Shown here piece by piece: positions 57,573 through 57,888 of a stretch of DNA of 60,494 bases (positions are counted from its first letter, which is position 1; each line of letters starts with the position of its first letter). The notes beneath the pieces were generated by a model. The model ran no database searches and was not told the DNA's origin. It was given only the letters and a program-made list of their open reading frames with translations. A program made the translations under genes and the position numbers. The stretch is from NCBI GenBank assembly GCA_035480635.1, contig DATIHN010000013.1:1-60494 (forward strand), in the 5' to 3' direction. Source of the stretch: Candidatus Saccharimonadales bacterium (lineage in GTDB: Bacteria > Patescibacteriota > Saccharimonadia > UBA4664 > DATIHN01).

Positions 57573-57674
57573 GCTCGTTTTGGGCTTCAGCTTGCATTCG
57601 GCATTGCCTAACTCCAGCTTGTGCCCAAAGCCTCGCTATCCGAAGTTCAAACGCTGCGCTGGTTTAAACTTCGG
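57573..57674 (+). repeat. Structured tRNA-trailer element, copy 1
   Basis: Homologous to 57785-57888; starts immediately after CCA. Confidence 0.85.
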
Positions 57675-57707
57675 TATATTCATATTAATTCGGTATGACC
57701 GCTGCGC

Positions 57708-57784
57708 GGTCGCTTAGCTCAGCTGGTTAGAGCGCACGGTTCACATCCGTGAGGTCGCAGGTTCGAACCCTGCAGCGACCACCA
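57708..57784 (+). tRNA. tRNA-Val(CAC)
   Basis: GGTCGCT...CACGG-TTCACAT-CCGTG...AGCGACCACCA. Confidence 0.96.
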
Positions 57785-57888
57785 ACTCGTTTTGCGCTTC
57801 AATTTGCGCTTTTTTTGTAAAAAAGCTCCAATTTACGCCCAAAGCCTCGCTTTCCGCAGCTCAAACGCTGCGCTGGTTTAAGCTGCGG
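57785..57888 (+). repeat. Structured tRNA-trailer element, copy 2
   Basis: Homologous to 57573-57674, with compensatory changes. Confidence 0.85.

Follow-up and report, generated by a model that had tools for sequence, protein, structure and literature searches.

Two hairpin elements behind adjacent tRNA-Val genes

The DNA analyzed here, referred to as the window, is a stretch of 60,494 nucleotides (nt) of contig DATIHN010000013.1 from a Candidatus Saccharimonadales bacterium; the segment studied spans positions 57,573-57,888. Two valine tRNA genes lie there on the plus strand upstream of the threonyl-tRNA synthetase (ThrRS) gene thrS. These are tRNA-Val(GAC) at 57496..57572 and tRNA-Val(CAC) at 57708..57784, both with an encoded CCA, and both were identified by ARAGORN and by the Rfam tRNA model (67.6 and 70.1 bits, respectively). 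Each gene is followed, flush with its CCA, by an element of about 105-108 nt containing two hairpins. Element E1 (57573..57680, plus strand) consists of the 4-nt lead GCTC, hairpin 1, a linker, and a hairpin termed P3. Element E2 (57785..57892, plus strand) has the same layout with the lead ACTC. The junctions read CCA/GCTCGT at E1 and CCA/ACTCGT at E2. Their extents were delimited by mutual alignment, by folding, and by matches to the covariance model R1 described below.

Alignment of the two units demonstrates that E1 and E2 are homologous, discrete, and related copies. The homology begins with the tRNAs, runs on past the CCA, and ends at the base of P3 (57674 in E1, 57888 in E2). Identity is 74% between the tRNAs and 71% across the whole element, while the flanks before the tRNAs and after the elements are unrelated (25-35%). 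The repeated unit therefore has sharp ends, one directly at the CCA and the other at the P3 base. A preliminary description of the locus had reported that both tRNAs, themselves well diverged, are followed at once by xCTCGTTTTGxGCTTCA...GCCCAAAGCCTCGCTxTCCG...CGG, and the alignment bears this out. It had also noted a 52-nt 3' block with five differences, four of them forming two compensatory pairs. This block (57623-57674 in E1) is indeed 90% identical (47/52), with the paired changes CCGAAGTT/AACTTCGG versus CCGCAGCT/AGCTGCGG. Two further compensatory pairs in hairpin 1 had been missed, namely AGCT/AGCT in E1 versus AATT/AATT in E2; these are self-complementary direct repeats that pair with each other. 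The central, apical hairpin of hairpin 1 was correctly described as entirely different, with 27% identity between the copies.

Hairpin 1 of E1 (57577..57631, plus strand) is predicted by folding and has compensatory changes relative to both E2 and the copy in a relative, L008 (AAAATG.../...CATTTT). In the predicted fold, the basal stem pairs GTTTTGGGC (GUUUUGGGC as RNA) with GCCCAAAGC (57577-57585 and 57623-57631), the inner stem pairs AGCT with AGCT (57589-57592 and 57616-57619), and a GGC/GCC apical stem occupies 57600-57608. Hairpin 1 of E2 (57789-57845), placed by alignment and folding, has the apical stem GCTTTTTT (GCUUUUUU as RNA) with AAAAAAGC, and AAUU/AAUU as inner stem where E1 has AGCU/AGCU. 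The P3 hairpin of E1 (57640..57674, plus strand), drawn from the fold, the R1 match, and the family alignment, comprises CCGAAGTTCAAAC, a 9-nt loop GCTGCGCTG at 57653-57661, and GTTTAAACTTCGG; as RNA it would read CCGAAGUUCAAAC-GCUGCGCUG-GUUUAAACUUCGG. P3 of E2, likewise placed by alignment and folding, lies at 57854-57888 with its loop at 57867-57875. Read on the minus strand, the P3 apex is GCGCAGC in both copies. The loop had been described as invariant; this holds for the nine nucleotides of GCTGCGCTG, but the adjoining CAAAC/GTTTA part extends the stem. Folding energies are lower than those of shuffled sequences, with z = -3.6 and -2.2 on the plus strand and -4.4 and -2.7 on the minus strand.

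The two copies are the only places in the window where the 19-mer and 15-mer words of the element occur, against expectations of 0.03 and 0.17. Their arrangement is reproduced by Logan contigs from soil runs of the same study. One covers tRNA1-E1-tRNA2 (209 nt) and another covers tRNA2-E2-thrS (1750 nt), each with 0 differences; these contigs were assembled independently, and the soil runs may include the window's own sample. In soil run X3, a contig of depth 7.5 links 57573 to 57708, running from the end of tRNA-Val(GAC) straight into tRNA-Val(CAC) without E1. This contig may represent a relative or an allele lacking E1.

Presence and absence in relatives

By its ThrRS the organism falls within Saccharimonadales. 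The nearest recorded relatives share only 70-76% identity in this protein, and two of them retain both tRNA-Val genes without the element. L007 (ThrRS 75%), which has the same diacid-regulator neighbours, carries both tRNA-Val genes separated by a 48-nt spacer that holds a different small hairpin, and its second tRNA leads directly into the thrS promoter. L010 (ThrRS 70%) also has both tRNA-Val genes, with a 29-nt spacer and no element, and in L067 an ordinary terminator follows tRNA-Val(GAC). Model R1 found no match in the thrS loci of eight relatives. In L008 (ThrRS 73%), a single homologous copy precedes the thrS leader and is oriented like E2. The tRNA-Val(GAC) of this relative is inverted onto the other strand so that the 5' end of the gene abuts the element. 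The L008 copy has a flipped basal stem (AAAAUGGGC/GCCGCAUUUU) and a shorter P3 with a T run after it.

By this distribution, E1 and E2 represent a gain in this Saccharimonadales lineage. The suggestion in the preliminary description that they act as a signal for tRNA processing or termination is not borne out in that form: they are not required for either, as relatives with the same two tRNA genes have none. Neither E1 nor E2 has a U-tract. An intrinsic terminator was also sought and rejected, since a scan of 57573-57900 finds none, though T runs occur in L008, L014, L022, and L057.

The surroundings of the elements have also changed. In the window, purC-purE (55995-57397) separate the diacid-regulator genes from tRNA-Val, but they are missing from the syntenic place in L007 (2352-3627); the window locus has therefore gained both purEC and the hairpin elements. 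Downstream of E2, the stretch 57905..58094 (plus strand), which lies outside the element, holds a thrS promoter-like sequence TGCTATATT followed by a T-box-like leader, both read from the sequence. The leader carries GGTGGAACC, has a terminator at 58050-58076 according to a terminator scan, and is conserved in relatives L006-L009; the Rfam T-box model gave no match on it at E<=10. On the upstream side, a consensus scan locates a promoter-like site, TTGAAT-17-TATAGT, ahead of tRNA-Val(GAC) (57443..57471, plus strand). The order tRNA1-E1-tRNA2-E2 is probably transcribed as one unit starting at this site.

A widespread family of P3 hairpins

The apex of P3 has the form AAAC-GCTNCGCTG-GTTT, which both window copies carry exactly. 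We searched for it as a 19-mer among genomes (one per species), as GCTTCA plus a 17-mer in metagenomes, and as the 17-mer alone in viral sequences. These scans returned 5 GTDB, 16 metagenome, and 38 viral loci. The 19-mer occurred in 5 genomes, about the number expected by chance, but 4 of these turned out to belong to the family. In 40 of 66 instances outside the window, the word tops a hairpin with at least 6 of 8 flanking bases complementary; by our own calculation, chance would yield this in about 0.4% of cases. Most of them carry, ahead of P3, a pyrimidine-rich linker together with a further long hairpin that contains internal loops. Carriers include metagenome-assembled genomes (MAGs) of Bacteroidales (L001, L003, L005) and Oscillospiraceae (L004), and many of the viral carrier contigs are late regions of tailed phages.

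The covariance model R1 was built from 19 family copies, none of which is from Saccharimonadales. In the window it recovers E2 (44.3 bits, E 4e-11) and E1 (33 bits, E 7e-8) on the plus strand and nothing else. Over 65 fetched loci it gives 89 matches, of which about 56 are full length; there are often several per contig, on both strands, and some lack the search word. All 25 of the 25 modelled pairs covary. Across the alignment, 91.8% of cells are paired, compared with 61.8% when shuffled and 35-47% with slid partners, a score somewhat favoured by the alignment having been fitted to the model. In copies found by structure only, the AAAC/GTTT segment also covaries (AACC/GGTT, AATC/GATT, GCCC/GGGC) and the conserved core is reduced to the loop GCTNYGCTG. 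The linker of the window copies, CCTCGCT(A/T)TCC, is aligned in the R1 match with the family form TCCTCCTCTTCC, a short stretch. Hairpin 1 of the window copies shares only its architecture and short words (GCTTCA, CTCCA) with the family and may be a lineage-specific or strongly diverged partner. These comparisons indicate that the P3 hairpins of the window belong to a widespread intergenic module that occurs in other phyla and in phages, in either orientation.

The family does not correspond to a catalogued element in the resources searched. With Rfam 15, the window region yields only the tRNAs and a weak match to HPnc0260 at E<=10, in line with the preliminary description, which could name no known family. 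The HPnc0260 match was rejected: it scores 33 bits against a gathering score of 59 (E 0.17) and is driven by antisense tRNA. Rfam 15 also finds nothing on 14 family loci at the gathering threshold, nor on L027 at E<=5. A blastn search with a canonical copy gave two unannotated partial matches among GenBank phages and none among plasmids. Neither the apex as a string nor keyword descriptions of the element were found in the literature library searched.

Base-pairing bias and the mini-hairpin apex

The pairs of 54 distinct full-length copies comprise 1123 Watson-Crick, 37 G·U, 52 A·C, and 58 other combinations. Structured RNAs usually accept G·U pairs much more readily than A·C pairs. The near equality of the two counts, whichever strand is read, fits a structure that is kept in DNA or used on both strands. 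The preliminary description had argued that structure is under selection and that the element is consequently a functional RNA or single-stranded DNA element. The first part stands insofar as pairing is kept by compensatory change, but the counts provide no proof of RNA. Template switching or templated correction in quasipalindromes can also generate paired changes without selection, as described in PMC7202029. Compensatory change alone is thus not proof of a functional RNA, because G·U is not favoured and templated correction mimics such changes in DNA.

These considerations bear on whether the window copies are functionless relics, copied once between the paralogous tRNA-Val genes (e.g. by gene conversion), with their hairpins kept or remade by templated correction and not by selection. 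Such an origin would account for there being only two copies in this genome region and for the dispensability of the element in relatives, as well as for paired changes that show no wobble bias. It sits poorly with the wholesale replacement of the apical hairpin of hairpin 1 by another hairpin, with the retention of the same architecture around a flipped basal stem in L008, and with the identity of the P3 apex across phyla. We judge it rather improbable.

The complement of the P3 apex is GCGNAGC, with N free across the family, which is the consensus of the mini-hairpin DNA d(GCGNAGC). This DNA forms two G-C pairs and a sheared G·A pair and melts at 70-76 C for any N, while its RNA counterpart, the tetraloop r(GCGAAAGC), the only one cited, is far weaker (39 C) (PMC13037366). 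The match to this consensus would explain why six apex positions are fixed and the middle one is free. Mini-hairpins of this type have been reported at the complementary-strand origin of phage G4, at ssiA of RSF1010, and at the hairpin promoters of phage N4 (PMC13037366). The GCGNAGC strand might fold when unwound at the replication fork and be read by a primase, a hairpin nuclease or transposase, or an N4-type polymerase, in which case the orientation of copies would track the replication strand instead of the gene strand.

Beyond the exact consensus, far more stable as DNA, and the pairing without RNA-type wobble bias, the strand distribution in the window is suggestive. Every GNA-capped hairpin with extra pairs lies on the minus strand, behind plus-strand tRNA-Val and minus-strand tRNA-Arg genes alike. 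These hairpins are the two P3 apexes, one hairpin inside an insert behind tRNA-Arg, and a small hairpin between the elements. The latter, GACC-GCTGCGC-GGTC (57697..57711 on the plus strand, found by a strand-specific scan of the sequence), takes its 3' arm from the opening four bases of tRNA-Val(CAC); read on the minus strand, it is the GCGCAGC mini-hairpin plus 4 extra pairs, and it may be a degenerate, reduced P3-like module. The strand bias is a lead only, as the sample is small, with the observation coming from two or three loci, and plain GCGNAGC, a short motif, occurs at close to chance frequency (18 and 19 matches per strand). The window shows too little GC skew to reveal the direction of replication. 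Other loops in 7 of 12 structure-found copies and the fact that no associated protein was found among the open reading frames (ORFs) around copies also count against a signal of this type. On balance, we consider it unlikely that the strand is read in this manner, and equally so that P3 is a cross-phylum single-stranded DNA signal, nucleated by the mini-hairpin, read by an enzyme for copy-and-paste or priming, and set flush at gene ends. If true, such a signal would define a new class of mobile elements: protein-free gene-boundary cassettes in phages, Bacillota, Bacteroidota, and Patescibacteria.

Positions of family members

The preliminary description envisaged an association with tRNA 3' ends, but the family is found much more broadly, also before phage genes, in rRNA spacers, within operons, and at tRNA 5' ends. 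In the phage contigs, the gene-sense strand carries the reverse complement of the window orientation. The stop codon of the upstream ORF lies no more than about 15 nt from the P3 side. At the opposite end, the sequence has the form GAGGACGA-N-ATG, and at least 11 copies have the start codon exactly 8 nt past the end of the model. The genes downstream encode tail sheath, tail proteins, large terminase, and portal. In L031, a 127-nt copy (6401-6528) lies exactly between a TAA stop and an ATG start and contains its own GAGGA ribosome-binding site. The syntenic sites in L030 (6139-6149), L032, L038, and L058 are empty, with 0-9 nt. The L031 element thus substitutes its own ribosome-binding site for the native one.

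Phage copies also occur in more complex arrangements. In L027, modules in both orientations form a mosaic that surrounds a terminase gene. Tandem 146-nt full copies are found at the ends of viral contigs (L036 9-256, L044 8098-8339, and also L062), and this tandem repeat probably broke the assemblies. Three ORFs (L030 7565-7810, L056 10172-11980, and L060 4541-4918) begin 7-9 nt past the model end and share near-identical first codons, (A/G)TG TGT CCA Ann TGG AC, although their lengths differ; these conserved words may belong to the repeat and not to the genes. Two coding or regulatory readings of the element itself were rejected. A reverse-strand small ORF has neither a conserved start codon nor a conserved frame, contains stops in L025, and has no ATG in the window. 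A promoter inside the element has no conserved hexamers, and its -35 position would fall in a covarying stem.

In cellular contigs, every copy read that is adjacent to a stable RNA has its (G)CTCGTC end at a distance of 0-3 nt from the tRNA or 5S end. Copies are upstream of tRNA-Ile in the 16S-23S spacer (L025, L026), of tRNA-Glu and of 5S (L023, L015), and of tRNA-Glu in Bacteroidales (L001). The L025 rRNA spacer is present in RNA runs, as contigs without direction. Copies in the opposite orientation, directly after the CCA, are those of the window (twice), of L022 and L059 (tRNA-Thr), and of L057. In L022 (1077-1130) and L057 (about 7850-7890, minus strand), the first hairpin is now a perfect 12-14-bp hairpin with a T run, a configuration resembling an intrinsic terminator that arose from the element. 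P3-only copies are found inside operons, co-oriented with the genes. One is between ftsH and the next gene, and L020 (5074-5246, minus strand) has two tandem P3-only hairpins, 137 nt apart, after nusA in the nusA-infB operon. When orientation was compared with that of flanking long ORFs, called by a naive method, the GC-rich contigs made the result too noisy.

Such positions could reflect RNA punctuation, in which the hairpins serve as RNase III-type sites and 3' protection that separate or stabilize cistrons or stable RNAs; their part in the window would be to separate the two tRNA-Val precursors and insulate the thrS leader. The copies are always intercistronic, running from stop to start in phage late operons, where they supply the ribosome-binding site, and lying between 23S and tRNA, tRNA and 5S, and tRNA-Ala and tRNA-Ile in rRNA operons, where transcripts normally undergo RNase III-type processing. 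The predicted fold of E1 and E2 has a shape that would be compatible with an RNase III-type site, at which cleavage falls within a hairpin of about 20 bp with an internal loop; relatives show other hairpins or a terminator at the same place, and the same-orientation post-tRNA copies of L022 and L057 have become perfect hairpins with T runs. However, the family occurs in both orientations relative to transcription, so that the conserved loop would read differently in the two transcripts. The pairs show no G·U excess, the element is dispensable in relatives, and E1 and E2 are without a U-tract. We consider punctuation at the RNA level unlikely, though it ranks first among the rival readings.

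The exact abutment to the CCA in the window, L022, and L057 also recalls an integrative mini-element that targets tRNA genes, inserting at the T-loop or 3' end and rebuilding the gene with a duplicated 3' end. An arrangement of this sort is present behind tRNA-Arg in the same window (33319-33495, minus strand): a second copy of the last 20 nt of the gene lies about 157 nt further downstream, with a hairpin-rich insert in between. This insert has GCGAAGC-capped hairpins on the tRNA strand and no R1 match, and it represents a different element class. By contrast, neither tRNA-Val has a second copy of its 3' end in the window (last 18 nt, <=3 mismatches), and the locus therefore does not have an attachment-site arrangement of the tRNA-Arg kind. 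The family is also found before ORFs and beside tRNA 5' ends. Integration into tRNAs is hence highly improbable and largely excluded. Among the three functions offered in the preliminary description, a tRNA-targeting miniature mobile element is nevertheless the nearest, with the correction that the element is not tied to tRNAs.

Interpretation and significance

We favour, at roughly even probability, the reading of E1 and E2 as interspersed extragenic hairpin repeats of the REP/BIME or BOX kind, located at gene boundaries and spread at the DNA level. It draws on the homology of the copies, the P3 family match, the covarying helices, the presence and absence among relatives, the flush gene ends, and the neutrality with respect to strand. 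The element is better described as a gene-boundary repeat than as a tRNA-specific RNA because the P3 family sits at many boundaries without tRNAs, in both orientations. Copies would be made and kept as DNA, either by recombination or by a hairpin-reading enzyme acting on single-stranded DNA. Once in place, an element would be transcribed along with its neighbours and be tolerated or exploited at the gene boundary. In the window, E1 and E2 would form 3' trailers of the tRNA-Val transcripts, and thrS would be transcribed from its own promoter-like TGCTATATT. The trailer hairpins could hold the tRNAs apart, impede exonucleases, and reduce read-through from tRNA1 to tRNA2 and on into the T-box-controlled thrS.

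Several observations weigh against this interpretation. No transposase, RAYT, or other mobilizing gene was identified near the copies. A neighbouring protein was considered as the mobilizer and rejected, as clustering of the ORFs around copies recovered only syntenic phage structural genes. There are no terminal inverted repeats or target duplications at the L031/L030 pair or at the window junctions. The high copy number typical of REPs is not established for the genome of the window: the window contains two copies in 60 kb, and four soil runs with this organism hold no further copy at least 80% alike, bar one low-depth variant. In addition, the link between the window and the family rests on P3 and the linker, since model R2, which represents the family P1/P2 alone with internal loop TTCATATCC / CTCATTCC, matches neither E1, E2, nor the L008 copy at E<=10, and P3-only members already score 35-39 bits with R1. 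The apex identity among retrieved copies is partly by construction, as the window's own 17-mer was the query; GCGNAGC is kept in 5 of 12 structure-only copies and the other 7 have different loops. Finally, the proposed trailer or barrier role is purely inferred.

While the kind of element is already known from extragenic repeats, phage start cassettes, and mitochondrial double hairpins, the family itself is apparently uncatalogued. If it is both real and uncatalogued, it constitutes a common structured element of prophages and rumen-derived MAGs that reaches the ultra-small Saccharimonadales. The family marks gene boundaries, can supply ribosome-binding sites, and sits within rRNA and tRNA operons; as such, it will mislead gene callers and screens for non-coding RNAs. 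The conserved apex offers a concrete starting point in the search for whatever protein or process reads it. For the window, the idea of a special tRNA-Val-linked RNA is removed, and the locus is instead recognized as remodelled relative to its relatives.

Comparison with known systems

The family resembles the REP/BIME elements of enterobacteria and pseudomonads in being composed of short, non-coding extragenic hairpins at gene ends or within operons, in both orientations. It also shares with them mosaic clusters of modules, as in L027, and variable stems that keep their pairing. It differs in having no GTAG-type motif at either P3 flank and no RAYT gene nearby, and in that the conserved part is the apex while the stems are free. 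It also lies flush at start codons and stable-RNA ends and is spread over at least three phyla and phages. Unlike miniature inverted-repeat transposable elements, it has no terminal inverted repeats and no target-site duplication at the L031/L030 pair or the window junctions. The BOX elements of Streptococcus pneumoniae (boxA-boxB-boxC) are similarly modular, strongly folded, intergenic, and transcribed with their neighbours, and like it they have no known mobilizing agent. However, they have no sequence similarity to the present family and are limited to streptococci, whereas the present family often gives the next gene its ribosome-binding site.

Among phages, parallels are the start-associated sequences (SAS/ESAS) of cluster K mycobacteriophages and the promoter-early stem-loops (PeSL) of T4-type phages, which are repeated cassettes located just upstream of gene starts. 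These combine an inverted repeat with a translation or transcription signal, and their presence varies between related phages. The present family likewise forms cassettes immediately upstream of phage genes, with presence and absence differing between related phages. It differs in sequence and hosts, and it also occurs in cellular rRNA and tRNA operons in both orientations. The term SAS occurs in PMC12699233.

Two further systems share individual features of the element. The double-hairpin elements (DHE) and repetitive hairpin-forming elements (RHE) of fungal and sponge mitochondria (PMC2800124; DHE are also mentioned in PMC10085805 and PMC4618339) are two-hairpin, non-coding, apparently mobile spacer insertions that are often next to tRNA genes. 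They are organellar, unrelated in sequence, and without a conserved apex of the P3 type. The mini-hairpins of the G4 origin, ssiA, and N4 have the exact consensus of the P3 apex complement, including its free middle base (PMC13037366). Those are single sites with known enzymes, whereas in the present family the mini-hairpin caps a long covarying stem and forms part of a dispersed repeat.

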